A stretch of DNA of 64,000 nt from an archaeon (GCA_041645325.1 JBAZQI010000001.1:8945-72944), one strand, 5' to 3'. Shown: positions 5,072 to 63,291, counted from the stretch's first letter. Translations and numbers: made by a program. Notes: generated from the sequence alone by a model not told the origin.

Positions 5072-5072
5072 A

Positions 5073-10690: not shown

Positions 10691-13600
10691 ATGGCGCTTG
10701 AGGAAGATGCTGATGATGAATCTGATTTTTCCCCTGATTTTTCTGCAAAAGCGGGGAAGGCTGGTGCGAAGCAAATTTCCCCTGATGAGGGAAGCGAAAG
10801 CCCCTATGTTTCCAAGTTTCTTGAATTTTTTGAGGCCAATTACAAGAAGGAATTGGAGCGGCTTGTTGAAAACTATCCTGACAAGAGAAGCCTTGAGGTT
10901 GACTTCAGGCTGCTTGAGCAGTTTGACATAGAGCTTGCGGACGCGATTTTGGACTCTCCTGACCTGCTGCTTGAAGCCGCAAAGGACGCGATTGAGCAGA
11001 TTGAGGTTCCTGCGCTTGAAATTGAAATCTTTTCTCCGCATGTGCGCTTTTTCAACATCCCGAAAGAGCATGAGCCTTTGGTGAGGGACATAAGCGCTGC
11101 ACAGCTTGGAAAGTTTATTGCGGTTGAAGGTGTTGTAAGGCAGATTACCACTGTGCTGCCAAAGCTCAAGGTTGCGGTGTGGAAATGCAGGCACTGCGGC
11201 AACACTTACGAGAAAGTGCAGGATGACCAGCAGCTCAAAATGCCTTCTTTCTGCGAATGCAGGCACAGGGACTTTGACCTTGTGCCGGAGCAATCCGAGT
11301 TCATTGACAGCCAGCGTGTTGAAATACAGGAGCCCTTGGAAAGGCTGAAGGGAAACGAGCAGGCCTCTACATTGCAGGTATACATTGCCGACGACCTTGT
11401 CAACAGGATAAGTGCAGGGGACAAGACAAGATTTACAGGGGTACTGAGGCTTGCGGTGCCGGACAAGAAGAAAACAGTTTACGGCAGGTACCTTGAGGCC
11501 TTTCATTTGGAGGAAACCCAGCGCGAATTCCTTGACGTTGAGATATCGCCTGAAGAGGAAAAGGAAATAAAGGATTTGGCGTCAAGCCCTGACATTTATG
11601 AAACGCTTATAAAAAGCATTGCGCCCGCAATTTACGGCCACGAAAAGGTCAAGGAATCAATCATCCTGCAGTTGTTCGGCGGCGTCAAGAAGAACCTGCC
11701 CGGCAACCAGACTGTGAGGGGAAACATCCACGTTTTGTTGGTGGGTGACCCTGGTTGCCTTGTTGCTGATGAAAGGATTGTGCTTGGCAATGGTGCAATT
11801 GAAAAAATCGGCAGCATTGGTTCAAGGCACTTGGAGGAAATAAACCTGCAGGTGCTCACAGGGCAGGGTGGCGCGAAAAGGGATACAGCAACTGTTTTCC
11901 ATTATTACAAGAGCCAGCCTGTGATTGAAATAGTTACAGAGAGTGGAAAAAGCATCAAGGGAACGCCAAACCACCCTCTTCTGTGCATTTCAAAAGAAAA
12001 CAGCCGTGTTGCAAGAAATTGGAAGCGCCTTGACGAATTCAGAGAAGGGGACAAGGTTGCGGTAGTGACTGGAATTCCCTGCACGATTACCCGTTACATT
12101 GAGACTGGCTTTAACCAATTGCCGCCTATTGGCGGGAGCAAATTCAAGGGTTCCTTACCTGAAAAGGTTACACCGGAGCTGGCTTCTTTTTTGGGTTATA
12201 TGGTTGGAGACGGCTGGGTTAGAAACTATGAAACGGCCTTTGTTGTGGCGGATAATGAAAAAGAGCTGTTGGAGCCGCTTCTCAAAATGTGTGAAAACCT
12301 GTTTGCGATAAAATCCTCTGTTGTAAGAAGAAAGCTTGAGGGAAGAAAAGTCTGGCTGAATTATGCAAGCATTTATTCGAAAAGCATTTCGCAAAACTTG
12401 CTCTTTTTGAGGGAAAAGCGTGTTCCAAACCCCATACTTAAGTCAGGCAACAAGGTTGTGGCATCCTTTTTGAAATGGCTTTTTACCGCAGACGGTTGCG
12501 TTTTCAACAATGGGCGGGGGAGGAGAGCTGTTTCATTTAAGGCAAAAAATATTGAACTGCTAAGGGACCTGCAAGTGCTTCTCCTCAGGTTTGGCATTCA
12601 CGGCAGAATAACTGGGAATTCACTTCAAATAAGGCGGGGCAGGGACATCATAAAGTTTGCGAAAAAAATCGGGTTTGCTTCAAAAAAGAAACGGGCTACA
12701 CTAAAAAAACTCGCGGAAGAAGCAAAGTCTTTTGCAGGGTTTAATTCCCAACGAAGCGAAAAAATAGTAAAAATTATTCAGCATGAGCCGGAAGATGTTT
12801 TTGATATTGAAGTTCCTGGCAGTCATCGTTTCATAGCAAACGGTGTCATCTCGCACAACACAGGCAAATCTCAGCTTCTTCAGGCCGCAAACACCATTGC
12901 GCCCAAAAGCATTTACACCGCGGGAAAAACCACGAGCGGCGTTGGATTGTGCATTGCGCCTGATTCTTTGGTGCTGAATGGCAATGGCTTTAAGAGGATT
13001 GAAGACTTTGTTGAAGAAAATTTCTGCAATGAAAAAGCGTTTGAGGAAATTCCCGGCGCATGGTCAAATATTTTTGATGGAAAGAGCCTTTCTTTGGACA
13101 ATGGGCTAAAAGCCGAAGAGGGAAAAATTTCCAAGATTTGGAGGCTAAAAGCCCCTGAAAAAATGTTTAGGGTGAAGACAAGGCTCGGAAAGGAGCTTGA
13201 GCTCACGCCGCATACTTCTCTTGTTAGACTAAAAGAGGGCAATGTTGGCTGGGTTGAGGCGCAGGAAATAAGCGAAGGCGATTTCATTGCCTGCGCAAGA
13301 AAACTGCCTGAAGGCGGCAGAAAAAACATTCCTGCAATCGGCATAATTGCGCATGACAAAAACGTGCGGATAAAGGACAATGTTGCAGTGCAATTGAAGG
13401 AAATAACCGACGGGCTTATGGCAAAGTACGGTTCTTTGCAGGAAATAGCCAAAAGCATTGGCAAAAGCAGGAATACGCTTTATTCAATCAGGAACAAAAA
13501 ATTCTATCACGGCATTTCTTTGAAGAATTTTGTTGAACTTGGCAAAGAGGCAGGATTTTCATTGGAAGCGCTTTCAGGGTGTGTTTCCACGATTTTCATA

Positions 13601-15577
13601 AGCTATGGAAAGGAAATGAAAATTCCGCGATATTTGGATAACGAGCGGCTTGCTTATTTGGCCGGCTTGGCTTTGGGTGACGGCAGCCTGTATGAGGCCG
13701 ATAGAAGTGCGTCTTTGAGGATTTTCAGCGCTTCACCGCAGCTTTTGCAGGAAGTTGACAACATTGCCCTGGATTTGTTTGGCTTGGAAGCTGAGAAGAT
13801 TGATGATGGAGTCAGGGTTCCTGCCAGGAGAATAAAATTCAGGGCTGTTTGTGAGCTTTTGAAGGCATTTGGCCTGGATAAAAGGAAAGGCAAAATAAGA
13901 ATTTCGCATCTTGCCTCGGAAATGCCTAACAATATTCTTTCAAAGCTCTTGCAGGGCTTGTTTGACACCGACGGCTGGGTTTGCAGTGGCAAAGACAGTC
14001 ACTGCATTGGCATGACAACGATTAGCAGGGATTTGGCGCAAAGCGTGCAGCTTTCTTTGCTAAAATTCGGCATCAGAAGCAAATTAAGGGAAAGAAAGAA
14101 AGCCGGCGTGCTTGCCGTTGGCAGAAAAATCTCTGTCACAAGCAGGCACAATCAGTATTGCATTGAAATAATGGGCAAAGAAAGCGTTGGGCTGTTCAAA
14201 GAGCACATCGGATTCAACCTTGCGCGAAAAAAAGAGAAATTGCAGGAACTTGCAACAAGCGTTCCAAAAGGCAACACAAACATTGATGTTGTTCCGCAAA
14301 TTCAAAGCCTGCTGAAAGCGGAGAAAGCAGAGTGGATTTACAGCAGTGGCAGGTCAAACATTTCAAAGGAAAAGCTGCAAAGGCTTGCAGGCGAGCAAGC
14401 ACTTGGCAATTCATTGTTGAAGCAATTGGCGGAATCTGATGTGATGTGGGAGCAAGTTGCGGAAAAGGTTTGCATAGAGTCGGCATACCCTTTTGTTTAT
14501 GATTTCTCGGTTGAAAAAAACCATAATTTTGTTGCAAACGGAATTTTTGTGCACAACACTGCATCTGCAGTCAAGGACGATTTTGGCGAGGGCGGCTGGA
14601 CATTGAAGGCTGGTGCGCTTGTTTTGGCCAGCGGCGGGGTTTGCATGGTGGATGAGCTTGACAAGATGGAGGCAGAGGACAGGAGCGCAATGCACGAGGC
14701 AATGGAACAGGGCATGATTTCAATAGCAAAGGCTGGCATTGTCACAAGGTTCAAGTCCGACACAAGCATCTTGGCCGCGGCAAACCCAAAGATGTCAAGG
14801 TTTGAGCCCTACCAGCCTTTCATTGAGCAGATTAATTTGCCGGCTTCGTTGATTTCAAGGTTTGACCTTTTCTTCATGATAAAGGACGTTTTGGACAAGA
14901 CAAAGGACGAGGCAATCACGGCGCACATCCTCAAAACGCACAAGGGCGGGGAAATGATTTCACAGTACAAGCAAAAGGGCAGGGTCATGCTGAAACAAGA
15001 CCAGGATGACATTGACCTTATTTCCTCGCCGCCGATACTGCCGGAATTGCTGGGAAAATACATTTCCTATGCAAGGCAAAACGTTTTCCCGATAATGAGC
15101 AAGGAGGCAATACAGCTCATTGGTGATTTTTACATCGGGCTGAGGGACATTGGGCGAAAAGAGGGAAGCTATGCGGCAACCCACAGGCAGCTTGAGGGCC
15201 TTGTAAGGCTTTCAGAGGCAAGCGCAAGGGTGCGCTTAAGCGACATTGCGGAAAAAGAGGACGCTGAAAGGGCAATAAGGCTTGTGAAGGCTTCTTTGAG
15301 CGATGTTGTCACAGACCCTGAAACAGGCAAGATTGATTATGACATCATTATGACCGGGCAGACTCACACCCAAGTTACGAACATGCGCAAAATCCTCACC
15401 ATCCTGAGGGAAAAGGCGAAAGAGCAGGACAATGTGCCGTTGCAGGATGTGCTCAACGAAGCTTCTGTGCAGGGAATTGACGCGGAAAGGGCGCGTGACC
15501 TCATAGCAAAGCTCGAAAAAAACGGCGAGCTCTACAGGCCAAGGCACAATTTCCTCAAGCCGACGAGAAACGAGTAA
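10691..15577 (+). CDS. mcm: MCM replicative helicase precursor carrying two inteins (mature about 724 aa)
   Basis: N-terminal OB/zinc (CRHCGN..CECRH). Walker A GDPG|intein|TGKSQLL. Walker B/arginine-finger region GALVLASGGVCMVDELDKM after the second intein. C-terminal wHTH. Confidence 0.9.
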   Translation: MALEEDADDESDFSPDFSAKAGKAGAKQISPDEGSESPYVSKFLEFFEANYKKELERLVENYPDKRSLEVDFRLLEQFDIELADAILDSPDLLLEAAKDAIEQIEVPALEIEIFSPHVRFFNIPKEHEPLVRDISAAQLGKFIAVEGVVRQITTVLPKLKVAVWKCRHCGNTYEKVQDDQQLKMPSFCECRHRDFDLVPEQSEFIDSQRVEIQEPLERLKGNEQASTLQVYIADDLVNRISAGDKTRFTGVLRLAVPDKKKTVYGRYLEAFHLEETQREFLDVEISPEEEKEIKDLASSPDIYETLIKSIAPAIYGHEKVKESIILQLFGGVKKNLPGNQTVRGNIHVLLVGDPGCLVADERIVLGNGAIEKIGSIGSRHLEEINLQVLTGQGGAKRDTATVFHYYKSQPVIEIVTESGKSIKGTPNHPLLCISKENSRVARNWKRLDEFREGDKVAVVTGIPCTITRYIETGFNQLPPIGGSKFKGSLPEKVTPELASFLGYMVGDGWVRNYETAFVVADNEKELLEPLLKMCENLFAIKSSVVRRKLEGRKVWLNYASIYSKSISQNLLFLREKRVPNPILKSGNKVVASFLKWLFTADGCVFNNGRGRRAVSFKAKNIELLRDLQVLLLRFGIHGRITGNSLQIRRGRDIIKFAKKIGFASKKKRATLKKLAEEAKSFAGFNSQRSEKIVKIIQHEPEDVFDIEVPGSHRFIANGVISHNTGKSQLLQAANTIAPKSIYTAGKTTSGVGLCIAPDSLVLNGNGFKRIEDFVEENFCNEKAFEEIPGAWSNIFDGKSLSLDNGLKAEEGKISKIWRLKAPEKMFRVKTRLGKELELTPHTSLVRLKEGNVGWVEAQEISEGDFIACARKLPEGGRKNIPAIGIIAHDKNVRIKDNVAVQLKEITDGLMAKYGSLQEIAKSIGKSRNTLYSIRNKKFYHGISLKNFVELGKEAGFSLEALSGCVSTIFISYGKEMKIPRYLDNERLAYLAGLALGDGSLYEADRSASLRIFSASPQLLQEVDNIALDLFGLEAEKIDDGVRVPARRIKFRAVCELLKAFGLDKRKGKIRISHLASEMPNNILSKLLQGLFDTDGWVCSGKDSHCIGMTTISRDLAQSVQLSLLKFGIRSKLRERKKAGVLAVGRKISVTSRHNQYCIEIMGKESVGLFKEHIGFNLARKKEKLQELATSVPKGNTNIDVVPQIQSLLKAEKAEWIYSSGRSNISKEKLQRLAGEQALGNSLLKQLAESDVMWEQVAEKVCIESAYPFVYDFSVEKNHNFVANGIFVHNTASAVKDDFGEGGWTLKAGALVLASGGVCMVDELDKMEAEDRSAMHEAMEQGMISIAKAGIVTRFKSDTSILAAANPKMSRFEPYQPFIEQINLPASLISRFDLFFMIKDVLDKTKDEAITAHILKTHKGGEMISQYKQKGRVMLKQDQDDIDLISSPPILPELLGKYISYARQNVFPIMSKEAIQLIGDFYIGLRDIGRKEGSYAATHRQLEGLVRLSEASARVRLSDIAEKEDAERAIRLVKASLSDVVTDPETGKIDYDIIMTGQTHTQVTNMRKILTILREKAKEQDNVPLQDVLNEASVQGIDAERARDLIAKLEKNGELYRPRHNFLKPTRNE
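11756..12859 (+). mobile_element. intein 1 (368 aa) inserted in the MCM P-loop, with LAGLIDADG homing-endonuclease domain
   Basis: Begins with Cys directly after GDPG and ends ...VISHN followed by T. Internal motifs LGYMVGDGWV and LKWLFTADGCV. Confidence 0.85.
12950..14557 (+). mobile_element. intein 2 (536 aa) in MCM AAA+ core, with LAGLIDADG domain
   Basis: Begins CIAPDSLVL... and ends ...GIFVHN followed by T. Motifs LAGLALGDGSL and LQGLFDTDGWV. Confidence 0.85.
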
Positions 15578-25103: not shown

Positions 25104-25571
25104 TCACAAAATCTTTTTTGCTTCTGCAGGGTGTGACCATAATTTTTCTTGCATTATTTTCCGGATTGCCTGCAGGAAGCCTTTCGCTATTTTGATTGTT
25201 GTGTCCGCATCTGACTCTTGGATTTCGCTGTTCCTTTCCAAGCCATACATGAGGTCGTGTCTCTGCAATCGAAGGGCATTGAGTTCGCTTAGGTATTTTC
25301 TTTCAATTTTGCCGCCGTATTTTTCGTTGATGTAAACATAAACTGCAAAGTGGCTTCTTTCCTTAAAGCCGTCCTTGAACAGCAGCGCTCTTGCTGAATG
25401 AAACATGGATGCGTAAGCGCTGATGATTGCGCTTTCAAACAGGTTGTGTTCGAATTCGGCTTCGGCAAGATCCAGCTTGTGCTCAGCCATTTCAATTGAA
25501 GATTTTGCTTTTTCCGGGTCGGGTTTCGATTTTGCCAGCAGGCCTTGTTCCAGGCATTGTTCAGTGTTCAT
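25104..25571 (-). CDS. HEPN-domain protein (toxin component of HEPN/MNT pair)
   Basis: Rx4HxY motif (RLQRHDLMYG). Its start overlaps the MNT stop. Confidence 0.75.
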   Translation of the reverse strand: MNTEQCLEQGLLAKSKPDPEKAKSSIEMAEHKLDLAEAEFEHNLFESAIISAYASMFHSARALLFKDGFKERSHFAVYVYINEKYGGKIERKYLSELNALRLQRHDLMYGLERNSEIQESDADTTIKIAKGFLQAIRKIMQEKLWSHPAEAKKIL

Positions 25572-26116
25572 GTAACCACGGGCTTTTCCCCAAACAAAAC
25601 AATGGAGTCATAAATGACATTTTCATAAAATACTTTGTCCTCAACAGCTTTCTTTTTCCAATCTGACAGCGAGAAGAGCGAAAAATTGGTTTCTTTGCCG
25701 AGTTTGTTTGTAAAACCAAAGTCGGTTTTGGCTTTTTGGCTGGAAATGACAAGCAGGTCAATGTCGCTTTTTTCGTCATTTGTCCCCTTTGCAAAGCTGC
25801 CATACAGCAGAATAGAAATAGGGTGCTGCATTTTTTTCACGGTTTGCTCCACAATTCTGGAATCTGCAATTTTGTCCAGGTTAAAGAGAATCTTCCACTG
25901 CCTGCACAAAGGGTTTTCCAAGTCAGCCCGGTATTGGTAAGTCTTGCCAATGATTTTCAGGCAAGCAATGCCTTTATTGCGCATGTAATCTAATGCGGTT
26001 CTTGTGGCTCCTGGGCTGAGGCACGTTTCCCTTGCCAGCCCCCTGACGGAAAAGCTTTTCATGGGCTCGGAAGTCAAAACGCGAATTGCCTTTATCAGAG
26101 CATATTTTTCCAGCAT
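25568..26116 (-). CDS. minimal nucleotidyltransferase (MNT) with N-terminal wHTH
   Basis: ILLYGSFAKGTNDEKSDIDLLVIS (GSx9-13DxD). The ORF-track start at 26182 is probably too long; Met23 sits about 25 nt downstream of a TATATTTAAATATA box. Confidence 0.7.
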   Translation of the reverse strand: MLEKYALIKAIRVLTSEPMKSFSVRGLARETCLSPGATRTALDYMRNKGIACLKIIGKTYQYRADLENPLCRQWKILFNLDKIADSRIVEQTVKKMQHPISILLYGSFAKGTNDEKSDIDLLVISSQKAKTDFGFTNKLGKETNFSLFSLSDWKKKAVEDKVFYENVIYDSIVLFGEKPVVT

Positions 26117-26467
26117 AACAATACAAAATACAATTGTATATTTAAATATAACGATGGGTTCATAGTTTACAATATAAAACAAGGGCTTTGTTGTTATGGG
26201 CGCTGCCGTGAATATTCCTTTGGAACGCGAATATTGGTATTCACGATTTTTTTCTTCGGTCTTTGCCGGAACGCCTTTCGGTTATTCCATAAATAGCGTC
26301 TTCAGGATGTGGGCTGGTAATTGCATATTCAAAACCTATATCCCGTACTCTTCTGTCCTTTCCTGTTCTTCTATCAAGCGGGTTTTTTACGCTTCTTCTG
26401 TCGATTGGCTTGATTGGCTTTAACGGCATTTAATTATCGCCATTAACCTTTTTGTTTTCCCTTCTTT

Positions 26468-32983: not shown

Positions 32984-34654
32984 TTATCCCCTCAGTGCCC
33001 GCATTACCGCAAGCAGGCCTATTATCATTGCCGCCAAAAATCCGGCTGCGCCTATGTCAGCCGTGTTTCCCATTGCGGTTTGGATGTTTGTGAACAGCAT
33101 TATTCCGGAACCAAGGATGAGCGCCGACACTATGAGGCTTATGCTTATGGTGTTGCTGCTTTTTTTGAGGCTCCTGCTCAGCTCGTCAATGTTTTTGGCT
33201 TCTATCGAAACCTTGAGGTCGTCTTCCTCAAGCTTTTTGAATATTTTTAACATGCTTTCCGGAAGCCTTTTTATGAGCCTGTCGAATTCAAAGTAGTTGT
33301 CCCTGAAGGCCCTGATTAGATAACCCGGCTTGGTTTTTTCTTCCATTATTTTTTGGATATATGGCGTTGCCTTTTCAACGAGGTTGAAGTTCGGATCAAG
33401 CGTTTCCACCGTGTTCTGGGCAACGCTTATGCTTCTCAGGAAAAGAAGGTATTCCTGCGGAACCCTTGCCTTGTGCTTTACCATTGCCCTTATCAAGGCG
33501 TTTCCAAACCCTTCAAAGTCTATTTTTTCGTAGCCTATGTCGTAAAAATAGTCCATTATGTCCGCGAGGTCCAGCATGAATTTTTGCTCGTCGTCAAGGC
33601 TGTCAATGACACCCATTGCCTGCAACTGCCTTGTCAGGCCCTTTACGTTTCTTTCAACTATCAGCACAATCATTGCCGCAACGTTGTTTATTGATTCCTC
33701 GTTCAGCCTGCCTATCATGCCGAAATCAACAAGGCTCAGTATCGGCTTGTTTTTGCGGATGTGCACAAAAACGTTTCCGGGGTGAGGATCTGCCTGGAAA
33801 AAGCCGTAGACAAGCATCTGCCTGAAAAAGCAGTCCGTGTAAAGGCTTGCAATCTCTTTTTTGAGCTGGCTTTTCTTGCTGTGAAAAAACTTGCTTATTT
33901 TCCTGCCCTGCACCCTTTCAAGCGTCAAAACCTTCGCTGTGCTGTAATCCCTGTAAACCTTTGGAATCACAATGTTTGCATCATTCCTGAAGTTCATTCC
34001 AAAGTGCTCGGCGTTGGTGGCTTCCCTCTTGTAGTCAAGCTCTTTCATTATTGTTTCGCCGAATTCCTTGGCTATGTTTGTCGGATTGTAGTAGTGCGTT
34101 TCCGTGATGTTTTTCTCGACAAGCTCTGCAATGAACTTCATTATGCGGAGGTCTTCCCCGATAATGCGCGTTATGTTGGGCCTCTGCACTTTGACCGCAA
34201 CACGCCTTCCGTTGTGCATGGTTGCAAGGTGCACCTGGCCTATTGATGCCGCGGCAACCGGCGTTTTTTCAAAGTGCTTGAATAGCGTGTCAACCGATTT
34301 GCCGAGCTCTTCCTTTATGATTTTCTCGGTCTCCTCAAAAGGAAAAGGCGGTACGTTGTCCTGAAGCTTTTTCATCTCTTCAATGTACTCTTCTTTCACA
34401 AGGTCCGGCCTTGTGCTCAGCATCTGCCCGAATTTTATGAACGTGGGGCCGAGCTCTTCAAAGATTTTGCGCAGTTTCACAGGCCCAGGGATTTCTTCCT
34501 TGCATTCCTCGCTTCCCTCAAGGCATTTCAGGAAGGGGTACTTTCCCTTCATCTGCGTTACTTCCCTCGAGGTCTCCCATCCATACTTGAGGAAAACCCT
34601 CATTATTTCAAGGAATCTCTTAATGTCCCCCGGCGTCTCAAGAAAGCTGAGCAT
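32984..34654 (-). CDS. ABC1/UbiB-family atypical kinase
   Basis: AAASIGQVH, VAVKVQRP and HADPHPGN motifs. Two C-terminal TM helices. Confidence 0.85.
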   Translation of the reverse strand: MLSFLETPGDIKRFLEIMRVFLKYGWETSREVTQMKGKYPFLKCLEGSEECKEEIPGPVKLRKIFEELGPTFIKFGQMLSTRPDLVKEEYIEEMKKLQDNVPPFPFEETEKIIKEELGKSVDTLFKHFEKTPVAAASIGQVHLATMHNGRRVAVKVQRPNITRIIGEDLRIMKFIAELVEKNITETHYYNPTNIAKEFGETIMKELDYKREATNAEHFGMNFRNDANIVIPKVYRDYSTAKVLTLERVQGRKISKFFHSKKSQLKKEIASLYTDCFFRQMLVYGFFQADPHPGNVFVHIRKNKPILSLVDFGMIGRLNEESINNVAAMIVLIVERNVKGLTRQLQAMGVIDSLDDEQKFMLDLADIMDYFYDIGYEKIDFEGFGNALIRAMVKHKARVPQEYLLFLRSISVAQNTVETLDPNFNLVEKATPYIQKIMEEKTKPGYLIRAFRDNYFEFDRLIKRLPESMLKIFKKLEEDDLKVSIEAKNIDELSRSLKKSSNTISISLIVSALILGSGIMLFTNIQTAMGNTADIGAAGFLAAMIIGLLAVMRALRG

Positions 34655-55660: not shown

Positions 55661-55993
55661 ATGAGGTGTGTTTGCGGAAACAAATTGCAGGAAATAGAAA
55701 CAGAAATGGATTTTTTTGACGGCAACCTGATAATGAGGAATGTAAAGGCTTTCTATTGCAGCAAATGCAAGGAAGAGCTTTTTGATTCAAAAGAAGGCGA
55801 CAGGATGTTTGACCTGGTGTCAAAATTAAGCCCGCAATGCGCTTTTGAATCAAGAAAAAAAATTGCAAGGGTGGGAAACAGCTATGCCATACCTGTGTCC
55901 AAAGAAATAGCGGATTACCTGCAAATAAAAAAGGGCGGGGATATTCTCGTAAAAGTAAAAAGCCCAAAAAAGCTGGTAATAGAAATACAGTAA
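55661..55993 (+). CDS. zinc-ribbon + AbrB/MazE-like swapped-hairpin domain protein
   Basis: N-terminal CVCG..CSKC. C-terminal ARVGNSYAIPVSKEIADYLQIKKGDILVKV. Confidence 0.55.
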   Translation: MRCVCGNKLQEIETEMDFFDGNLIMRNVKAFYCSKCKEELFDSKEGDRMFDLVSKLSPQCAFESRKKIARVGNSYAIPVSKEIADYLQIKKGGDILVKVKSPKKLVIEIQ

Positions 55994-56109
55994 CAACAGC
56001 GCTTTCAGCGCCTTCCGCACCCAAATCATGCCGGTCCGTCAACAGGCCGCAAAAACTATGGGCGGCGGAATTGGCAGGAAATTCCACCTGCTTCAATGCA
56101 GGCAGGCAC

Positions 56110-56724
56110 ATGTTTAAATTGGAAAAAAGCCTTATTCTTCCACAAAAAGGTGTTTTCTTGCTGAACAATTTTTACGACAAGTTCATTTTTGCCAACGCCC
56201 TGAAATACAAGAACAACAACTTTTTCCTCGCTGACCTGCCGTTCCTTGTCTGCCCGGTGGAGCTGCTTTCAGGGCTGCTTGAAACACAGGACCAGGATTT
56301 TGAAAGAAAGCTTTACCTTGCGATAAGGGAAAGCGTTTCAAAGCACCTCATTCCGTCATTTGGCGCTGAATTTGGCCTAAGAGGCAAGCCTCTTGTTGAC
56401 TTTCTCGAAAAGTACTTTGTGGCTTCCGGCTGGGGCACAATAAGCAATATTGACCTTGACTTTGAGGCAAAAAAGGCGATTGTAAGGGTCTCAAACAACC
56501 CTGTGTCAAGCAGGCTCCATTTCCGCGCAGCAGCGCCGGCAGACCACATTCTCCGCGGCGTCCTGGCCGGCATTTTCTCGCGCGTCTTTGAGGAAAAAAT
56601 GGACTGCGTTGAAACCCATTGCTGTGCCCTGGGCGAACAGGAATGCGAATTCATAATAAAAAAACAGCACGATTTTGACTTCTCGGACAAAAGGGTAATG
56701 CGGCAGGTAGAACTGCTGCTATAA
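56110..56724 (+). CDS. V4R (4-vinyl reductase) domain protein
   Basis: C-terminal ...CVETHCCALGEQECEFIIKK with the V4R cysteine/CEF signature. Confidence 0.55.
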   Translation: MFKLEKSLILPQKGVFLLNNFYDKFIFANALKYKNNNFFLADLPFLVCPVELLSGLLETQDQDFERKLYLAIRESVSKHLIPSFGAEFGLRGKPLVDFLEKYFVASGWGTISNIDLDFEAKKAIVRVSNNPVSSRLHFRAAAPADHILRGVLAGIFSRVFEEKMDCVETHCCALGEQECEFIIKKQHDFDFSDKRVMRQVELLL

Positions 56725-56790: not shown

Positions 56791-57534
56791 ATGATTCTTG
56801 GGATTTCAACAGGCTGTTTCTGGCAGTCCGGTTTGCCGGAACTCAAAATTCTGCGTTTTTTGAGGCGTCTCCCTGAGCTTGATGCCATTGAACTGGTTTT
56901 CGCTTTTCCCGAAGAGCTTTTTGATTTCAGACCGAAGCGCGAAGATATTGCGTTTTTGCACTCAAAAAAGCACGTTTCCCTGCATGCGCCTTTCAATGAA
57001 GTGGAATACAAGAATAATGCAAAATCCAAAAAACTTCTTGCCGCCCTGAATTCACTGGCACTGAAATGCGAAGCAGAGAATGTTGTTTTCCACGCGCACA
57101 CAATAAAGGATTTTTCCCTTTTTGAAGGCATTGATTTTGCGCCCCTGGCTGAAAACCTGGTCTCAAAAAAAGGCATGGAGCGGCTGGTTTCCGTGCAGCA
57201 ATGCAAGGATTTTTTGTCATCGCATGAAAACTTTGGCTTCTGCTTTGACGTCGGCGATTCCCTGGCTGAAAGAATCAAGCCAAAAGACTTTTTTGCCCTT
57301 AAGAACAGGCTAAAGGAAGCCCACATTCATTTTCCAAGTCTTGAAAAAGGCAAACTCAAACCTCACTGTCTGCCTTCAAAAACCGGCAAAAAATTCCTTG
57401 ACGAGGTTAAGGCAATCCCTTTTCCGGACGTCCCCCTCATATTTGAAGGATATTTTCCTTCAGCCGAACAGGATATTGCAACAAAAGAAATAGAACTATT
57501 CAAAACACTCATGGATTGCAAAAGCAAAATTTAA
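56791..57534 (+). CDS. sugar-phosphate isomerase/epimerase (xylose-isomerase-like TIM barrel)
   Basis: MILGISTGCF... VVFHAHT and the pattern of catalytic acidic residues. Confidence 0.55.
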   Translation: MILGISTGCFWQSGLPELKILRFLRRLPELDAIELVFAFPEELFDFRPKREDIAFLHSKKHVSLHAPFNEVEYKNNAKSKKLLAALNSLALKCEAENVVFHAHTIKDFSLFEGIDFAPLAENLVSKKGMERLVSVQQCKDFLSSHENFGFCFDVGDSLAERIKPKDFFALKNRLKEAHIHFPSLEKGKLKPHCLPSKTGKKFLDEVKAIPFPDVPLIFEGYFPSAEQDIATKEIELFKTLMDCKSKI

Positions 57535-57582
57535 TCCAATTCCCCCTCCTTTTTAAATAATTTCCATGCAATTACTCTTATC

Positions 57583-58422
57583 ATGGCATTGTCTTTTTCG
57601 ATTGTTGCTGCTAATCCTGCTTCCACTGAAGATTTCATTATTCTTGCTTTGAGCCAAAGGTTTCCCTTGTCAGCCAAGGAAATCTATTCTACCTTGAGAA
57701 GAGATGGTTTCGGAGCTTCTTATCAGGCTGTTCACAAGAAGCTGAAGGAATTGGAAAAAGATTCTATTATAGTTAAAGATGGCCGTAAATACCTGATTAA
57801 TAGGAACTGGATTTTGAATGCAAAATCTTTTCTAGAGCGAATGGACAGAGATCTGATTAGATCTGACAAGAAAGTTGAGGCAAAGGAGGCTGTTTGTCTT
57901 TCTTTTGATTCTTACAATGACTTTAGCACACATATGCTGGAAGAATTCGTAAAGGAAAGAGAGTTAGAACCAGGCGGAATTTGCGTAACCTGCCAAAAGC
58001 ACTTTTATTGGATTCTCAGCATCAGCAAGCGCGATTATGCGCTCTTGAGAAAGCTGGGTTCGGGTGGAAAGAGTTACATTGTTTGCGAGGGCAATTCTCC
58101 TATTGACAAATTGCTTGCTCCGATTTACAGAAAGCTTGGCTGGAAAGTTGTTACAGGCATAAATTACTCTGAAAATTACGACCTAATAGTCTACAGGGAC
58201 TGGATTCACCAGATTTTCTTCTCAGAAAAGCAAAAGAGAATAGTTGAAAAAGTTTGTAAAGAAGTTCACGGCTTAGAGGGCTTTACCTCAAATTTTTACA
58301 AAGAATACTTTGAAAACAAAGGCAAAATAAAGGTGATTATATTCAAAGACTGCGAATTGGCAAGGCAGCTGAGGGCAGATGTCCTAAAACACTTCAAAAG
58401 CGCAGGCCTAACCCCCAAATAG
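57583..58422 (+). CDS. wHTH + C-terminal unknown-domain protein, paralog A
   Basis: N-terminal LSAKEIYSTL....SYQAVHKKLKEL winged helix. The C-terminal domain aligns with 61674..62480 (about 25-30% identity by eye). Confidence 0.55.
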   Translation: MALSFSIVAANPASTEDFIILALSQRFPLSAKEIYSTLRRDGFGASYQAVHKKLKELEKDSIIVKDGRKYLINRNWILNAKSFLERMDRDLIRSDKKVEAKEAVCLSFDSYNDFSTHMLEEFVKERELEPGGICVTCQKHFYWILSISKRDYALLRKLGSGGKSYIVCEGNSPIDKLLAPIYRKLGWKVVTGINYSENYDLIVYRDWIHQIFFSEKQKRIVEKVCKEVHGLEGFTSNFYKEYFENKGKIKVIIFKDCELARQLRADVLKHFKSAGLTPK

Positions 58423-58501
58423 GTCTATGATGCCATTTTTACTTTATAAGAAAAATTTATATACAAGCGGCGTTTTATAATACCAATAAGGATGTTTTAT
58501 T

Positions 58502-59269
58502 TTGGTTGACATCGAAAGAACAAAGTTTGGGATTCAAGGCCTTGATAAAGCGCTGATGGGCGGGATTCCGCAAGGAAACATTGTGCTGGTTAGTGGCGGT
58601 GCAGGAACCGGAAAGAGCACCCTTTGCTTGCAGTTCCTAGTCAATGGTGTAACTGCCTTTGGGGAAAAAGCGCTTTACATTAGTACAGAGCAGACTGAAG
58701 GAGAGTTGCAAAAGCAGGCAAGTAGTTTTGGCTGGGACCTGAAAAGGCTTGAGGAAAAAAACCTTCTGAAAATTATTTTCTTTGACATCACGCACGGAGA
58801 CAATTTCCTGCAGCAAGTTGATTTAACTATTAAAGAATTCAAACCCAAACGCATTGTAATTGACAGCATGACCACTTTGACTGATTCCCTCATCATTGGT
58901 GGCATGAGTGAAGACAGTGCATTCTCCTTGGTTCAAGTCCTTGAATCAGTTTCGCCTATACCAAGAACGGAGCAAATAATCGCAAAAAGCATACTATACA
59001 AATTAATAGCAGAACTAAAAAAATACAAGCTTACCACGATTCTCACATCTGAACTCTACGAAGAGGCAAAACGCCTAAGCGCGGACGGAATATCAGAATT
59101 CATAACGGATGGGGTAATCATACTGCACTACATAGAAATCGGGGCAAGTGACTACAGAAGTATGGAAATAAGAAAAATGAGATACTCAGACTATGGCAAA
59201 GACGTAATACCCTACAACATCACTAGCAAAGGAATAGAAATTGTGGAAGAAGAAAAAACCAAATTCTAA
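58502..59269 (+). CDS. KaiC/RadA-like single-domain RecA-superfamily ATPase
   Basis: GIQGLDKALMGGIPQGNIVLVSGGAGTGKST Walker A. Walker B ...RIVIDS. Confidence 0.8.
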   Translation: MVDIERTKFGIQGLDKALMGGIPQGNIVLVSGGAGTGKSTLCLQFLVNGVTAFGEKALYISTEQTEGELQKQASSFGWDLKRLEEKNLLKIIFFDITHGDNFLQQVDLTIKEFKPKRIVIDSMTTLTDSLIIGGMSEDSAFSLVQVLESVSPIPRTEQIIAKSILYKLIAELKKYKLTTILTSELYEEAKRLSADGISEFITDGVIILHYIEIGASDYRSMEIRKMRYSDYGKDVIPYNITSKGIEIVEEEKTKF

Positions 59270-59492
59270 CCTATTTCTCACATATGTGGCAAAAAGCAGT
59301 TATATTACTTTCACATATATTACATACAATGACTGCTGATTTTCGTTCGAGCAAAAATCAGCTACTACCTACAGCAACTCGAAAAAAGGCAAAATCAGAA
59401 CCAAGCACCTAGGGCCAAGCACTATAACAGCACGGTCAATGGAAATGGAAAAAATCAGAATAATACACGAAATGATGAAGGAAGCGTAAAAA

Positions 59493-60017
59493 ATGTTTGA
59501 CGTAGTGAAAAAATTGTTACTTGCAAGACAACTCTCTTTAGAAAAAGGTCACATAAAATTACTTGAAGTGCCAGTAAATGTTATCCCTGTTTCTGTCATT
59601 GCTTACTTAGAGAAAATACTTATAGACACTTTTGGTTATGAAGAAGCGAGAAAGAAAATTTACCAAGGAGGCTATGAAGGGGGGCGAGATTTCTGTAATA
59701 AGTTTGTGGAAAGATATCGTATGAAAACCCCCCGGGAAATAATTGAGTGGGAGTTGAATATTGTCACAATGGCGGGGTGGGGTGAACTAGAGTTAAAGAG
59801 GTTAGATGCTAAAAAAGGGTCTGCTCTTGTGATTGTAAAAAACTCTTCTGTAGCTGAAATGTTAGGACCGTATGGTAAATCAATCGATTTTTTTATGGAA
59901 GGTTTTATGGCAGGCGGTAGTTCAATTGCGTTGGGTATGCCAATGAAGGTTACTGAAGTCAAATGTAAATCCAAGGGCGATTCTTTCTGTGAGTTTTTGT
60001 TTGAGAGCGAAATGTAG
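59493..60017 (+). CDS. V4R-domain protein
   Basis: C-terminal CKSKGDSFCEFLFE V4R signature. Confidence 0.55.
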   Translation: MFDVVKKLLLARQLSLEKGHIKLLEVPVNVIPVSVIAYLEKILIDTFGYEEARKKIYQGGYEGGRDFCNKFVERYRMKTPREIIEWELNIVTMAGWGELELKRLDAKKGSALVIVKNSSVAEMLGPYGKSIDFFMEGFMAGGSSIALGMPMKVTEVKCKSKGDSFCEFLFESEM

Positions 60018-60034
60018 TGGTCTCTGAATCTTGA

Positions 60035-60892
60035 TTGAGTGGTTTGATGTCAAAAATTTCACATTTTTTCCATCTTATCGTTCCACAGTACATTCCAATG
60101 GCACTTACCAGTCTTCTAGTAGGTGCCGTTTTTTCAATTAGTTCTTTGCCTGATTGGCGTTTTTGGATTGCAGCTTTTTCTCTTTCTTGTATTGTAGGTG
60201 GTTTCAACTCTTTTAATGCAATCGCGGATAAAGAGATAGACCGAATTAACAAACCTTATAGGCCAATTCCATCTAAGAAAATCACTGAGAGAGAAGCTTT
60301 GTTGTTCGCCGCTTTGCTATATTTTGTTGCTTTGTTTTCTGCGTTTCTTATTAACCTGGTTTTTTTTGTAATCATTTTTATTTCAACGCTTCTTACAATA
60401 GCATATTCTTATCCTGGTTTAGATTTAAAGAAACGATTCTTTTTTGGAACTCTTAGTGTAACCTTTTTCTATGCCGTCCTATGTCCATTGGCTGGATGGG
60501 CTCTTTATCCATTGGAAGAAATTCCCCTCTCTATAATTTTTTTCTTGTTCTTTTTTGGTTTAAGTTTGGCTATCTCAAAAGATTTTATGGATATGCTGGG
60601 AGACTCTTGCAACAAGGCTAACACCTTTCCTGTTAGGTTAGGATATAATCAAAGTATCGGCTTTGTATTTCTTTTCTTGACCTTTTCATTTGGCTTTTTG
60701 ATTTTTTTGGTCAGTCAAAAAATTTTACGTTCAGAATATCTCTTTATTTTGATTTTTTTCCCTCTATTGATTCTAAATATAAACATTCTCAGAAGGAAAA
60801 CTATTTTGTTTACTAAAAATAATGTGTTTGGAAGAACAATAATTCTTATAATAATCCTTGAATTAACTCTTATTTTGTTGGAAATAACCTAA
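60035..60892 (+). CDS. UbiA-superfamily prenyltransferase (DGGGP-synthase-like)
   Basis: NAIADKEIDRINKPYRPIPS (first Asp of the NDxxDxxxD motif replaced by Ala) and a second Asp-rich motif DFMDMLGD. Eight to nine TM segments. Confidence 0.7.
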   Translation: MSGLMSKISHFFHLIVPQYIPMALTSLLVGAVFSISSLPDWRFWIAAFSLSCIVGGFNSFNAIADKEIDRINKPYRPIPSKKITEREALLFAALLYFVALFSAFLINLVFFVIIFISTLLTIAYSYPGLDLKKRFFFGTLSVTFFYAVLCPLAGWALYPLEEIPLSIIFFLFFFGLSLAISKDFMDMLGDSCNKANTFPVRLGYNQSIGFVFLFLTFSFGFLIFLVSQKILRSEYLFILIFFPLLILNINILRRKTILFTKNNVFGRTIILIIILELTLILLEIT

Positions 60893-61488
60893 ATAGTTAT
60901 CTTCAGCGCTTCTAACCATATGTAGACTATGGTTTCTAAAACGATCAGGTTTACCCCTACTAGCCCGCCTAGGACGACGACTTGTTGTTTCCATCCTTTT
61001 ACTTTTTCGGTTGCAAATTTGTAGGCGAATACGAAGAGGCTTATTGCAAATATCCAGCCGATAAAGTTTACGAGTGGTGCTCCAAACCATATTGATTCTG
61101 GTGTCCATAGCCAAAATTTGTATGCAAACGCAAGGGGCTCAAGCATTATAATATCAAATAATGTTGCTGTTGTGGCAGTCATTGTTTCTATTTTAACAAG
61201 ATTTTTGATATGGAACTTGCTTGTTATTATATAGTAACCAACAAATATAACTGTGGCCCATGCTAACGGTACATAGAGCGGAACACCAAGTGCATAGATT
61301 GTATACGTTGCTGCATAGTAATATCTATGAAAAATAAAAATCGAGAAAAATTCTATCAGCCACCCCCACATAGCAGCTGGCACCATAAATAAGAGCGCAG
61401 TTTTTACGCCTTTTTTTCTTGAGAAAAAAACAAATGCCAGCAAAAAGGCGCCAATCCAAAAAAATTCAAATAAGAGATGCACCAACAT
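60889..61488 (-). CDS. aromatic-rich polytopic membrane protein (unrecognised)
   Basis: 199 aa, 5-6 TM segments. Convergent with the UbiA gene, with a 4-nt overlap. Confidence 0.45.
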   Translation of the reverse strand: MLVHLLFEFFWIGAFLLAFVFFSRKKGVKTALLFMVPAAMWGWLIEFFSIFIFHRYYYAATYTIYALGVPLYVPLAWATVIFVGYYIITSKFHIKNLVKIETMTATTATLFDIIMLEPLAFAYKFWLWTPESIWFGAPLVNFIGWIFAISLFVFAYKFATEKVKGWKQQVVVLGGLVGVNLIVLETIVYIWLEALKITI

Positions 61489-61673
61489 TAAATCGCCCTT
61501 TATAGCTTATTTTGTTTTCTTCAATTCCTCTAAATTATAGCCTCTCTACAGTAGCTAATTATTGAACTTCGTATTTTTTAACGATTTCTTTTCTGTTAAA
61601 TATATCTGTTTATGTCGATTAATTTTTCTTTGCCTGAGTTGGTGCAAGCAGTTCTGGTGTAAGGGACCGCATT

Positions 61674-62480
61674 GTGAGTATTCTCGGTGAGGAGTGGCCT
61701 CTTTCCGCGAAGGAGGTTTTTAACAGGGTTTGCAGGGCTTTGAACAAGACTGTTTCTTACCAGGCAGTTCACAAGGTTTTGAAGCAGCTGGTTTTTGAGG
61801 GTGTGTTGCGCGTTGACAGCGGCAAGTACCGGCTCGATGCTAGCTGGATTGACAACTTAAAAAAGATTGTCAATGAATTGGATTCGAAGTACAACTCGGT
61901 GGACAAAACCCATATTGTAGGGGGGAAAGTGATTAATCTTACTTTTAACAACTACAATCAGATGGGGCGGTTCTTTGTTTACAAATTTCTAAACGGAGAT
62001 TTCAATCCTGAAAACAGGCCTTCGCTTTGTCTGATGCAGCACACTTGGCCGACAATAGGCTTGTCGGACGAGGATTATGTTGCTGTTCGGAAGGGGCTGA
62101 AGAGAACGCTTCATTATTGCATCGTGGAGGGCGGCACTTTTCTGGACAAGTGGTTTGTCACGCTGCTTGAAAAGCTGGGGAAAAAGTGCGTAACTGGCAC
62201 TAAGCCGCCGGGCAACGCTGACTTGGTTGTTGAAGGCGATTACATTGCGCAGGTTTTCTTTCCCTATGATTTCAGAAAGAATTTCAATGCCCAGTACGAA
62301 AAAATAAAAAAAGCGGACCAACTTGACATATTCAACGTTTTCATCGAAATCCTGGGAAAAGACGCCAAAATTACCGTGCTCATAACGGAAAATCAGCTTC
62401 TTGCAGAGCAGTTGAGAAGAGAATCAATAAGTATTTTTAACAGAAGCGGAGCGAAAACTCAAAGCCAAAAATTGCATTGA
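61674..62480 (+). CDS. wHTH + C-terminal unknown-domain protein, paralog B
   Basis: LSAKEVFNRV....SYQAVHKVLKQL. The C-terminus aligns with paralog A (VEGG/VCEG...KLG.K.VTG...DL(V/I)V..D(Y/W)I.Q(V/I)FF). Confidence 0.55.
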   Translation: MSILGEEWPLSAKEVFNRVCRALNKTVSYQAVHKVLKQLVFEGVLRVDSGKYRLDASWIDNLKKIVNELDSKYNSVDKTHIVGGKVINLTFNNYNQMGRFFVYKFLNGDFNPENRPSLCLMQHTWPTIGLSDEDYVAVRKGLKRTLHYCIVEGGTFLDKWFVTLLEKLGKKCVTGTKPPGNADLVVEGDYIAQVFFPYDFRKNFNAQYEKIKKADQLDIFNVFIEILGKDAKITVLITENQLLAEQLRRESISIFNRSGAKTQSQKLH

Positions 62481-62673: not shown

Positions 62674-62985
62674 TCAGATTATTTCGGCAATTTTTTCGGA
62701 TTCTGGTCTGCGGTAAAGGCAGCCGTCTTTCTCCACAATGCAGTTTTTTGAAAACGCGTCCATTATTTTTTTCAGCTTGCCGTTCCTGATAAGCGTGTTT
62801 TTTTCAATGTCCTCCAAAGAAAAGTAGCAGTTTTTTTCGCGCAGAATGCAGAGCAATGCCATTACATGGCTTGGCCCGGCTTCCGGAACCTTTTGCGCAA
62901 GAATGCGGAGCATTGCCGCCTCCTTTACAGTTGTGCCAGCCACCCAAACCCCTTTTTTGTTTGAAGGCAGGGTGCTCGGGCGCAA
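62674..62985 (-). CDS. small winged-helix protein
   Basis: MarR/ArsR-like helix pattern in MLRILAQ...; about 80 aa from Met25. Confidence 0.35.
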   Translation of the reverse strand: MRPSTLPSNKKGVWVAGTTVKEAAMLRILAQKVPEAGPSHVMALLCILREKNCYFSLEDIEKNTLIRNGKLKKIMDAFSKNCIVEKDGCLYRRPESEKIAEII

Positions 62986-63291
62986 AGCCAGGCGAGCGCC
63001 CTGCCGCGAGCAGGCTCACAATTTCTTGGTTGCCCGCAAAAAGAAACGCGGCTTTCGGGCTATTATATCCATGGTTTAAAAAAGTTAAACCAGAAGGTTT
63101 ACTTGACACATAGCCTTTATTGCTCAATGCAAGAAATATGAAAAGGTATAGTGAAGGGATTATGCCGAAAATTATTTTTCTCATGACTGGCAGTTTTTTT
63201 GAATCTCCGCACCTATGCCTTCAGCAGGCGTGGCATTCAAGCTTCTATTTAAAAGAAGTTATATTGCAAATTTTATTGTGGGGACAAAATT

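Follow-up and report, generated by a model that had tools for sequence, protein, structure and literature searches.

What does a cluster of six genes bracketed by two paralogs do in a small archaeal genome? Within a 64,000-nucleotide stretch of DNA (the window) from a Candidatus Iainarchaeum-like DPANN archaeon, positions 57583 to 62480 hold all six open reading frames that had been proposed from the sequence: two winged-helix (wHTH) proteins, a KaiC-like ATPase, a V4R protein, a UbiA prenyltransferase and a membrane protein. The original prediction took them to be a regulated module for making or sensing a prenylated membrane compound, unlike any described system. The cluster is a real, conserved and previously undescribed module, and there is about an even chance that this stretch represents a module conserved throughout the DPANN archaea, in which a KaiC-centred sensory and regulatory unit is combined with enzymes for making or tailoring isoprenoid membrane lipids.

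The flanking paralogs

The two flanking proteins, parA (57583..58422, + strand) and parB (61674..62480, + strand), are 31% identical over 260 aligned residues (E 6e-31) and have the sequence LSAKE...SYQAVHK in common, in agreement with the proposal that they are diverged paralogs with a shared N-terminal winged helix. They belong to a large, unannotated archaeal family of DNA-binding proteins, here given the working name FAM, which comprises at least 644 clusters at 50% identity and has no sequence match in Pfam, NCBIfam or the PDB. parA, with a wHTH, a dimerisation helix and a phospholipase-D (PLD)-like domain, is of the orthologous type that is the putative partner of KaiC; KaiC-adjacent FAM proteins form a separate group in the orthology comparison. 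parB is of a different type, and its closest relative (L014_6531) is 40% identical to it. It has a truncated N-terminus relative to its relatives: the 12 codons upstream are still homologous, lie behind an in-frame TGA (61635-61637) and have no start codon. FAM genes occur in arrays of one to nine ancient paralogs that flank the core on one side or on both, so that the bracketing, which had been taken as a feature of the cluster, is incidental. Fused forms also exist, with the arrangement wHTH-PLD-PLD(-PLD) or with a HAD-IB phosphatase, a methyltransferase or, weakly, a prenyl-diphosphate-synthase-like domain.

The AlphaFold model of FAM consists of a winged helix, a long dimerisation helix and a PLD-like domain without the HKD motif, which gives a fold to a C-terminal domain previously described as of unknown function. 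Over its full length the model is structurally closest to TrmBL2 of the TrmB family (PDB 5bpd), and the overall architecture is predicted to be TrmB/TrmBL2-like, with the wHTH, dimerisation helix, C-terminal domain and structural similarity expected of that family. By sequence, no link to that family is seen: none of 32 FAM members matches PF01978 or PF11495 at E<=1, hhalign gives a probability of 0.5% for FAM against a bona fide TrmB, and the FAM HMM does not match the same TrmB. Unlike TrmB and TrmBL2, to which it has no detectable sequence similarity, FAM has a wHTH nearer to the Fur, BlaI and HTH_12 profiles, occurs in multi-paralog arrays and has an invariant recognition helix; it is restricted to DPANN archaea, whereas TrmB is mainly euryarchaeal. 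The Fur family was also rejected, since the wHTH part has only weak, sub-threshold matches to PF01475 (14 of 32 members, best E 1.7e-5) and the C-terminal domain is PLD-like, not Fur-like. The recognition helix, [S/T]YQAVHK, is nearly invariant, with Y47, Q48 and K52 each 99% conserved. By sequence the paralogs fit no named regulator family. Their modelled appearance, with a wHTH, a dimerisation helix and an effector-type domain, would suit the dedicated regulators that had been suggested.

The C-terminal domain has the PLD/Nuc fold, and it might be an active enzyme of that superfamily, a nuclease or phosphatidyl-transferase directed to lipids or DNA by the wHTH. This is hardly credible. The HxK(x)4D catalytic motif is not conserved across 161 FAM sequences, no Lys stands at +2 from H140, the one His with partial conservation (78%), and PLD-like folds without catalytic function (FAM83, MITD1, TrmBL2) reach equally good scores.

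The ATPase, the V4R proteins and the membrane enzymes

The gene at 58502..59269 (+ strand) encodes, as predicted, a single-domain KaiC-like ATPase of the RecA superfamily (PF06745, E 7e-57). Its Walker A (GGAGTGKST), catalytic (STEQ) and Walker B (RIVIDS) motifs are intact and are kept in FAM-linked homologs. It is not a circadian KaiC, which has two domains (CI and CII), about 500 residues and an equivalog-level score; this protein has one domain, 255 residues and 123 bits against the TIGR02655 cutoff of 546. KaiC-like ATPases are regarded as hubs of archaeal signal transduction (Makarova, Galperin & Koonin 2017, as cited in PMC5847659). Like those systems, the cluster places a single-domain KaiC/RecA-type ATPase beside putative inputs (V4R, FIST) and outputs (wHTH), but the catalytic motif of this subfamily is STEQ rather than the usual EE.

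The next gene (59493..60017, + strand) encodes a stand-alone XylR_N+V4R protein of the sensor or carrier type (PF02830, E 3e-9, 37.1 bits against a cutoff of 31; PF06505, E 3e-8, 33.7 against 23), in which the Cys cluster E..C..G..C-E-F is conserved. A true V4R gene lies directly 3' of KaiC in at least 11 other loci. The architecture and the Glu/Cys cluster resemble those of the XylR/DmpR/PoxR-type sensors, MsvR and BchJ, and for this protein, too, a small hydrophobic ligand is predicted. It differs in standing alone, without an AAA+ or HTH output domain, and in being paired with a KaiC-like ATPase. Just upstream of the cluster (55661-56724), where a third V4R protein and a Zn-ribbon-AbrB protein had been noted, both are indeed recognisable. 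The V4R protein (56071..56724, + strand; gene-caller start 56158; PF02830, E 8e-12) keeps the E..C..G..C-E-F cluster and has orthologs of 49-54% identity at the same position in two other loci (L004 and L007). The small Zn-ribbon and AbrB/MazE-like protein encoded before it (55661..55993, + strand) matches the YgiT zinc finger (TIGR03831, 22 bits against a cutoff of 20.2) and, weakly, MazE_antitoxin; no homology is detectable between it and the small proteins that occupy this position in those two loci. Between this V4R gene and parA lies a gene for a 247-residue protein (56791..57534, + strand) with a weak, below-cutoff match to a xylose-isomerase-like TIM barrel (PF01261, E 1e-3) and no counterpart in the other loci compared.

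The UbiA-superfamily prenyltransferase (60035..60892, + strand; gene-caller start 60047; PF01040, E 4e-34, 118.5 bits against 34.2) carries both Asp-rich motifs, DKEID and KDFMDMLGD. Its closest solved relatives are chlorophyll synthase ChlG (PDB 9sau) and the DGGGP synthase of M. jannaschii (PDB 6m31), with which it shares the UbiA fold, the first motif ...DxxxDxxNKPxRPxPS... and the second, KDFxDxxGD. Unlike both, it has lost the Asp that follows the motif Asn, as had been pointed out (N-A-I-A-D-K-E-I-D against N-D-I-F-D-I-E-I-D in the M. jannaschii enzyme). Throughout its clade, N-[A/G]-x-x-D-x-x-x-D, this Asp is replaced by Ala, Gly or Cys and the DxxxD pair is intact, so that its loss is no evidence of a crippled enzyme; the change is a signature of the whole clade and does not point to decay. 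Assignment as a DGGGP synthase equivalog fails, given the N-A-x-x-D motif and scores of 99 bits against 296 (PRK12882) and 69 against 353 (PRK12883); every other NCBIfam equivalog cutoff is likewise missed (for example 113 against 269). There is no second UbiA gene in the window; the genome is represented by 64-97 kb of sequence.

The membrane protein gene (60889..61488, − strand) is convergent with UbiA, overlapping it by 4 nt. The product is polytopic as described, but the aromatic membrane protein of the original prediction has a recognisable family: it is CruF-like (PF04240, E 3e-21, 76.6 bits against a cutoff of 25). It is not a CruF equivalog (bisanhydrobacterioruberin hydratase; TIGR03460, 53.6 bits against 154.7). 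In haloarchaea, LyeJ, a UbiA-family lycopene elongase, works with the hydratase CruF in C50 carotenoid synthesis. The pairing of a UbiA-family gene with a PF04240 membrane protein recalls that system, but the present match to CruF is a distant one, a search of the window brought up no carotenoid genes, and other DPANN loci do not keep the pairing. The CruF-like gene is absent from all 76 related loci and, among the loci examined, is seen only in assemblies of this organism; in other loci its equivalent place is held by geranylgeranyl reductase (GGR).

Conservation of the neighbourhood and a candidate operator

Dozens of independent DPANN genomes carry the same gene set, an association far beyond chance. 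It is shared by Iainarchaeia, Aenigmatarchaeota, Micrarchaeota, Woesearchaeota and Nanoarchaeota, in which the genes change order but stay adjacent. When loci are sampled from the FAM side, KaiC lies within 10 kb of FAM in 24 of 37 long loci and UbiA and/or GGR is present in 21 of 76; about one third of the long loci lack KaiC within that distance, and a lipid gene is missing from most. In 16 loci KaiC is within 100 nt of a FAM gene. UbiA is linked to KaiC or V4R in at least 13 other loci, and the linkage also emerges when loci are sampled starting from UbiA: one locus reads KaiC-V4R-V4R-UbiA (L089), and two read TrmB-V4R-(Fer4)-GGR-UbiA-KaiC (L091 and L093), with a Pfam-recognisable TrmB in the position of FAM. 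Type 2 loci have, after KaiC, an unrelated 221-residue protein (p221) in place of V4R. Since the KaiC-V4R-UbiA linkage is kept across DPANN lineages, the case that would have told against the original prediction, an ordinary UbiA without conserved linkage to the ATPase, does not apply. The searchable literature yielded no description of FAM combined with V4R or p221 and with UbiA or GGR.

A 16-bp palindrome, TCAACC-N4-GGTTGA, accompanies FAM genes. It has 70 sites in FAM loci against 2.1 expected and none in FAM-free loci; most are at FAM promoters. Of 69 sites, 39 fall no more than 150 nt from the edge of a FAM gene, and about 30 lie directly upstream of FAM genes. The window holds a composite cis-element, a candidate FAM operator (63063..63103, unstranded), made up of the TATA-like ATTATATCC, a half-site GGTTTA and the palindrome TAAACC-AGAA-GGTTTA (63086-63101), which is the only exact match in the window. 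It sits between orf103 and a Band-7 gene; no palindrome occurs upstream of parA, parB, KaiC, V4R, UbiA or CruF in the window. Because this only candidate operator is outside the bracketed genes, direct control by the paralogs is unsupported. The original prediction is thus supported in part, by the recurring KaiC/V4R/UbiA linkage. orf103 (62674..62985, − strand; 79 residues, 62674-62913, by the gene caller) encodes a small wHTH-like protein without a Pfam match, divergent from the palindrome, and its homologs in two other loci (L032 and L079) each adjoin a palindrome site. The reader of the palindrome could instead be such small wHTH proteins, which are often encoded divergently from it. Helix and operator do not co-vary in FAM because both are invariant.

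Possible function and its alternatives

In the lipid-linked KaiC module that we favour, FAM proteins would be dimeric transcription factors that read TCAACC-N4-GGTTGA, and the overlap of the palindrome with their own TATA region in many loci leads us to propose autorepression. Their divergent C-terminal domains may bind different effectors or partners. GvpD acts on the activator GvpE; by analogy, the parA-type FAM, always encoded beside KaiC, would be the partner of the ATPase. The V4R protein would bind a hydrophobic ligand, as sensor or substrate carrier, and UbiA, with the CruF-like hydratase here and with GGR and ferredoxin elsewhere, may attach and modify geranylgeranyl-type chains. The module would thus link lipid or isoprenoid status to gene expression, enzyme activity or both. 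A more specific version can be offered only tentatively: an undescribed, lineage-wide DPANN system in which TrmB-like factors with an invariant helix and a palindromic operator, a dedicated KaiC-like ATPase and a V4R (or FIST) sensor control a non-canonical UbiA and GGR, as a switch for assembling or remodelling ether-lipid membranes from salvaged isoprenoid precursors in host-dependent cells.

KaiC, V4R, UbiA and GGR might instead form a lipid-handling machine rather than a signalling unit, with V4R as chaperone or carrier of a hydrophobic acceptor or prenyl substrate, KaiC as an abundant scaffold or energising ATPase, and FAM regulators merely nearby. UbiA and GGR often directly adjoin KaiC or V4R, chlorophyll synthase is the closest solved relative of this UbiA, and clusters of photosynthesis genes have bchG (UbiA family) next to bchP (GGR family) (PMC6052148). 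The role suggested for BchJ, the founding member of the V4R proteins, is that of a substrate chaperone and not of a reductase (PMC7242693), and in Nanoarchaeum equitans a 256-residue KaiC with a single domain ranks among the most abundant proteins (PMC3149612). We consider this reading a serious one, if rather doubtful: KaiC-FAM pairs occur in many loci without lipid genes, type 2 loci have p221 and not V4R after KaiC, and the dedicated orthologous group of KaiC-adjacent FAMs points to a partnership between KaiC and a regulator.

It is unlikely that FAM proteins are nucleoid-associated, with KaiC close by in its general role as a hub and the lipid genes incidental. TrmBL2, the closest full-length structural match, is a chromatin protein (PMC4877046), FAM paralogs are many per genome, and a DNA-reading helix invariant across paralogs of about 25% identity is unusual for regulators with distinct targets. 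The specific, strongly over-represented palindrome at FAM genes nevertheless argues for sequence-specific binding, the ancient differentiated paralog groups and enzyme fusions are better suited to effector-responsive regulators, and the UbiA/GGR linkage recurs from UbiA-side sampling. Least probable of the readings of the whole cluster is a coincidental neighbourhood, in which UbiA is an ordinary DGGGP synthase and the other genes are regulators that have nothing to do with it, in a small genome dense with genes. JGI pipelines do label many close UbiA homologs geranylgeranylglycerol-phosphate geranylgeranyltransferase, each window gene has its own TATA-like box, KaiC and V4R are 223 nt apart and the module does not keep the CruF-like gene from locus to locus. 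The synteny census strongly disfavours coincidence: the set recurs across five DPANN lineages, reordered but still adjacent, and UbiA, whose clade has an altered motif, scores far under all DGGGP synthase equivalog cutoffs. Nor is the census likely to be an artefact of a few close genomes, since UbiA identity between loci goes down to about 25-45%.

The cluster and its UbiA-type enzyme

The six open reading frames of the cluster (57583-62480) lie exactly where the original prediction placed them. The two bracketing winged-helix (wHTH) proteins, parA (57583-58422) and parB (61674-62480), are indeed paralogs, with 31% identity over 260 residues (E 6e-31), and their protein family is referred to here as FAM. 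Between them are found, as had been proposed, a single-domain KaiC-like ATPase (PF06745, E 7e-57) with intact Walker A, STEQ and Walker B motifs, an XylR_N+V4R protein and a UbiA-family prenyltransferase (E 4e-34). The remaining bracketed gene, which the prediction had left unplaced as a convergent polytopic membrane protein, does encode a membrane protein and is now assigned to the Caroten_synth/CruF-like family (PF04240, E 3e-21). It is on the strand opposite UbiA, overlaps it by 4 nt and, among the loci compared, is present only in assemblies of the window's organism. Upstream of the cluster sit a Zn-ribbon/AbrB-like gene and a third V4R gene, also as predicted; these two were considered as a conserved pair and rejected, since relatives have small, non-homologous proteins in that place.

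The G+C content falls from about 0.47 to 0.34-0.40 over the cluster (57000-62000). Because the lowest values coincide with the UbiA and CruF-like membrane-protein genes, this fall may reflect amino-acid composition rather than foreign origin. The spacer between the KaiC and V4R genes is unusually long (223 nt) and contains a palindrome, CACATATGTG (59279-59288), with a second copy of CACATATAT 24 nt downstream of it (59313-59321). A sigma-70 promoter and terminator scan of the window gave results at or below chance, the model being inapplicable to archaea.

The first Asp of the UbiA active-site motif is replaced, as the original prediction had noticed: the sequence reads N-A-I-A-D-K-E-I-D, compared with N-D-I-F-D-I-E-I-D in the digeranylgeranylglyceryl phosphate synthase (DGGGPS) of M. 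jannaschii, while neither the DxxxD pair nor the second motif, KDFMDMLGD, is altered. The pattern N-[A/G/C]-x-x-D-x-x-x-D is shared by all 53 closest homologs, and N-[A/S/Q/G] is seen in a related Thermoplasmata clade; only distant DGGGPS-like matches show the canonical ND again. The Asp is also missing in nine of the 11 module-linked UbiA homologs of the genome loci, one of these 11 being a fragment of only 68 aa. Since the change is so widespread, it is a clade signature and not decay, and a pseudogenised UbiA was rejected on the same ground. Homogentisate prenyltransferase-type sequences have NQ at this position, and such enzymes are active. The window's enzyme scores far below all NCBIfam equivalog cutoffs, and among solved structures it is closest to chlorophyll synthase and MjDGGGPS.

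The FAM family

Neither parA nor parB matches any entry in Pfam, NCBIfam or the PDB sequences beyond weak, sub-threshold wHTH hits, in which the N-terminus resembles the Fur, HTH_12 and BlaI-type winged helices. A word-index search returned only about 32 relatives, but an exhaustive HMM search across 1.84 billion representatives raised the number of proteins to 2465 at a cutoff of E<=1e-3; 1939 of these remain at E<=1e-10 and 644 at E<=1e-30. The family is thus large and without annotation, which justifies a new family model for hundreds to thousands of 'hypothetical proteins'. In species-representative genomes, 76 FAM loci were found, nearly all of them in DPANN archaea (Iainarchaeia, Aenigmatarchaeota, Micrarchaeota, Woesearchaeota and Nanoarchaeota).

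In the AlphaFold2 model of parA (mean pLDDT 83.6), residues 15-72 form a winged helix, 74-95 a long helix and 104-273 an alpha/beta domain. The best full-length Foldseek matches to this model are five TrmBL2 chains (E down to 5e-9, about 285 aligned columns), and the model has the domain order of TrmB and TrmBL2, in which a winged helix and a long helix precede the C-terminal domain. This predicted likeness has no counterpart at the sequence level, where hhalign detects no relationship between the FAM profile and genuine TrmB. The most conserved feature among 161 diverse members is the recognition helix, [S/T]-Y-Q-A-V-H-K, whose Y, Q and K are each conserved at 99%. The catalytic HxK motif of PLD enzymes is absent across the same members, and since this HKD motif is missing, FAM as an active PLD enzyme was rejected.

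Each locus has between one and nine FAM copies. Within a locus their median identity is 29%, and only 17 of 155 proteins find their best match in the same locus; judged by sequence, the copies within loci are ancient. Copies within 200 nt of KaiC have a best other-locus match that is also KaiC-adjacent in 9 of 18 cases, compared with 7 of 137 for the rest, and on these similarities the KaiC-adjacent copies form a group of their own. This KaiC-partner type includes parA, whose orthologs are 65-76% identical to it, and parB belongs to another. The N-terminus of parB is shorter than in its relatives: in 61635-61676, 12 codons upstream of its GTG retain homology to the N-terminus of the family but come after an in-frame TGA (61635-61637), and none of the 12 is a start codon. 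The ancestral start has thus been lost and wHTH helix 1 is partly missing, which may represent early decay or the use of a non-canonical start.

Long FAM members are of two kinds. In the first, wHTH-PLD-PLD(-PLD), a single wHTH is followed by two or three PLD-like copies (proteins P0009, P0033-P0038 and P0043, and the genes at 8595 of locus L015 and 4149 of locus L028). Because only the C-terminal domain is repeated, the analogy with Nuc dimers suggests that FAM C-terminal domains pair with each other. In the second kind, a full FAM module is fused to another domain: an HAD-IB phosphatase in four proteins (L040 7318-8856, L042 8493-10049, L071 150-1661 and P0166), a SAM methyltransferase in one (L086 9965-11665) and, weakly (E 3e-4), a prenyl-diphosphate-synthase-like domain in one (L080 9594-11810). 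Stand-alone HAD genes near FAM arrays were rejected as supporting evidence, since they belong to subfamilies IA and IIA, compared with IB in the fusions.

Gene neighbourhood and candidate operator

KaiC is found within 10 kb of FAM in 35 of the 76 loci, or in 24 of the 37 that span at least 15 kb, and in 16 loci it is no more than 100 nt from a FAM gene. Of the 76 loci, 11 have UbiA, 13 geranylgeranyl reductase (GGR), 21 one or the other, and 13 FIST, which encodes a putative alternative ligand sensor. The gene directly after KaiC encodes either a true V4R protein (at least 11 loci) or an unrelated 221-aa protein, and two layouts can be distinguished. Type 1 has the order FAM-KaiC-V4R-UbiA and may include GGR; in L032 and L063, as in the window, FAM genes stand on both sides of this core. 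Type 2 has KaiC, the 221-aa protein, a 126-aa protein, GGR and FIST in this order, together with FAM arrays. The syntenic locus of a close relative, L009, has the same upstream genes (L37ae-Pcc1-prefoldin-DHH) but the Type 2 layout, that of the window being Type 1. The 221-aa protein was considered as a V4R protein and rejected, since alignment shows the two to be unrelated. The 221-aa and 126-aa proteins (4729-5394 and 5360-5740 in L004) have homologs in about 10 loci and match no family in a direct Pfam scan; a precomputed annotation of the 126-aa protein gives only a weak match to PF27410 (AF0774).

The linkage of KaiC, V4R and UbiA, for which the original prediction had proposed a neighbourhood check, recurs whether loci are sampled from FAM or, in a second, independent sample, from UbiA homologs. 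One UbiA-sampled locus, L089, has KaiC-V4R-V4R-UbiA, and beside its UbiA gene is a 90-aa ORF (8833-9105), probably a FAM gene remnant, whose similarity is confined to the central part of the C-terminal domain of FAM (E 3e-14). Two others, from the 'NG' branch of the UbiA clade, have the order TrmB-(NUDIX)-HTH-V4R-(ferredoxin)-GGR-UbiA-KaiC, with a Pfam-recognisable TrmB at the FAM position (L091 5018-5773, L093 375-1154). In a Thermoplasmata relative, UbiA and GGR occur with neither KaiC nor V4R.

A palindrome, T[CA]AAC[CT]-N4-[GA]GTT[GT]A with the consensus TCAACCAAAAGGTTGA, was assembled from K-mer enrichment upstream of FAM genes and is a candidate FAM operator. It is often preceded by a third half-site, GGTTGA, and a TATA-like TTAATATA. 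The exact pattern has 70 sites in 1.15 Mb of FAM-centred sequence, compared with 2.1 expected from shuffles (maximum 6). The sites are nearly all intergenic; 39 of 69 are no more than 150 nt from the boundary of a FAM gene, and about 30 precede a FAM gene by 20-100 nt, where they frequently overlap a TTTAAA box some 27 nt ahead of the start codon. Six FAM-free loci with lipid genes contain none. When palindrome variants were compared with recognition-helix variants for co-variation, both proved invariant, so that the comparison carried no signal. An invariant helix together with an invariant palindrome is consistent with dimeric factors that all use one operator.

The window contains exactly one palindrome (63086-63101), inside a complete composite element (63063-63103) that consists of a TATA-like box, a GGTTTA half-site and the palindrome TAAACC-N4-GGTTTA, and that recurs across DPANN phyla next to FAM genes. 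None of the bracketed genes has the palindrome. A search of the whole window with three mismatches gave 28 hits, compared with 25.5 expected, which is chance level, so that only the exact-pattern search is informative. The site follows parB by about 600 nt and precedes two genes: a Band-7 gene, by 190 nt, and, by 101 nt, the divergent orf103 (62674-62985, minus strand), a small wHTH-like gene whose homologs in L032 and L079 adjoin the same composite element. Small divergent wHTH proteins of this kind are an alternative to FAM as the proteins that may bind the palindrome.

Proposed regulation and the rest of the window

In the proposed mechanism, FAM proteins would be TrmB-like dimeric transcription factors sharing one operator, and their divergent, non-catalytic PLD-like domains would receive different signals. 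A parA-type copy would work with the adjacent KaiC-like ATPase. GvpD/GvpE provide one precedent. Another is the proposal, cited in PMC5847659, that KaiC proteins form signalling hubs in archaea. The V4R protein, or FIST in other genomes, may give ligand input or carry a hydrophobic substrate, for which the precedent is the V4R protein BchJ, whose behaviour in bacteriochlorophyll synthesis is that of a pathway chaperone (PMC7242693). The UbiA-clade enzyme, with GGR and ferredoxin or with the CruF-like hydratase, would act on geranylgeranyl-type lipid chains.

In the main rival explanation, KaiC and V4R would not signal but belong to the lipid machinery itself. BchJ works next to the UbiA-type and GGR-type enzymes of bacteriochlorophyll synthesis, whose genes, bchG and bchP, adjoin each other in photosynthesis gene clusters (PMC6052148). 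As a signalling unit, the module would be a specific example of the proposed archaeal KaiC-centred signalling, with a defined metabolic output.

All parts of the module are of known kinds, and it is the FAM family, its candidate operator, the UbiA clade signature and the conserved combination that appear to be undescribed. Literature on V4R with DPANN, lipids or KaiC, the 2017 KaiC-hub paper being outside its coverage, contained no description of the module or the family, in line with the prediction that no described system matches. Most DPANN archaea do not have complete lipid pathways, so how they obtain and keep their membranes is an open question. The module gives this question a concrete starting point: it combines a conserved set of enzymes for late lipid steps (GGR with ferredoxin, and a UbiA of an unusual clade) with a KaiC-like ATPase, ligand-binding proteins and a large regulator family, unannotated so far, for which an operator is predicted. 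For biochemistry it supplies a DNA motif that can be tested, and pairs of proteins.

The window is otherwise archaeal housekeeping DNA (Topo VI, MCM with inteins, exosome, proteasome and ribosomal proteins), with Candidatus Iainarchaeum (Diapherotrites, DPANN) MAGs as its closest relatives. No other lipid-pathway gene was found within the 64 kb; the only other possibly lipid-related gene encodes an ABC1/UbiB-type atypical kinase (32984-34654, minus strand, E 8e-78), a family elsewhere tied to isoprenoid-lipid homeostasis. The MCM helicase gene (10691-15577), a 1628-aa ORF, contains two inteins with LAGLIDADG homing-endonuclease domains, and a separate 258-aa LAGLIDADG ORF is located near it (8758-9534). 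A HEPN-domain gene adjoins a nucleotidyltransferase (Pol-beta/MNT-type) gene (25104-26182, minus strand) in the layout of a HEPN-MNT toxin-antitoxin pair.
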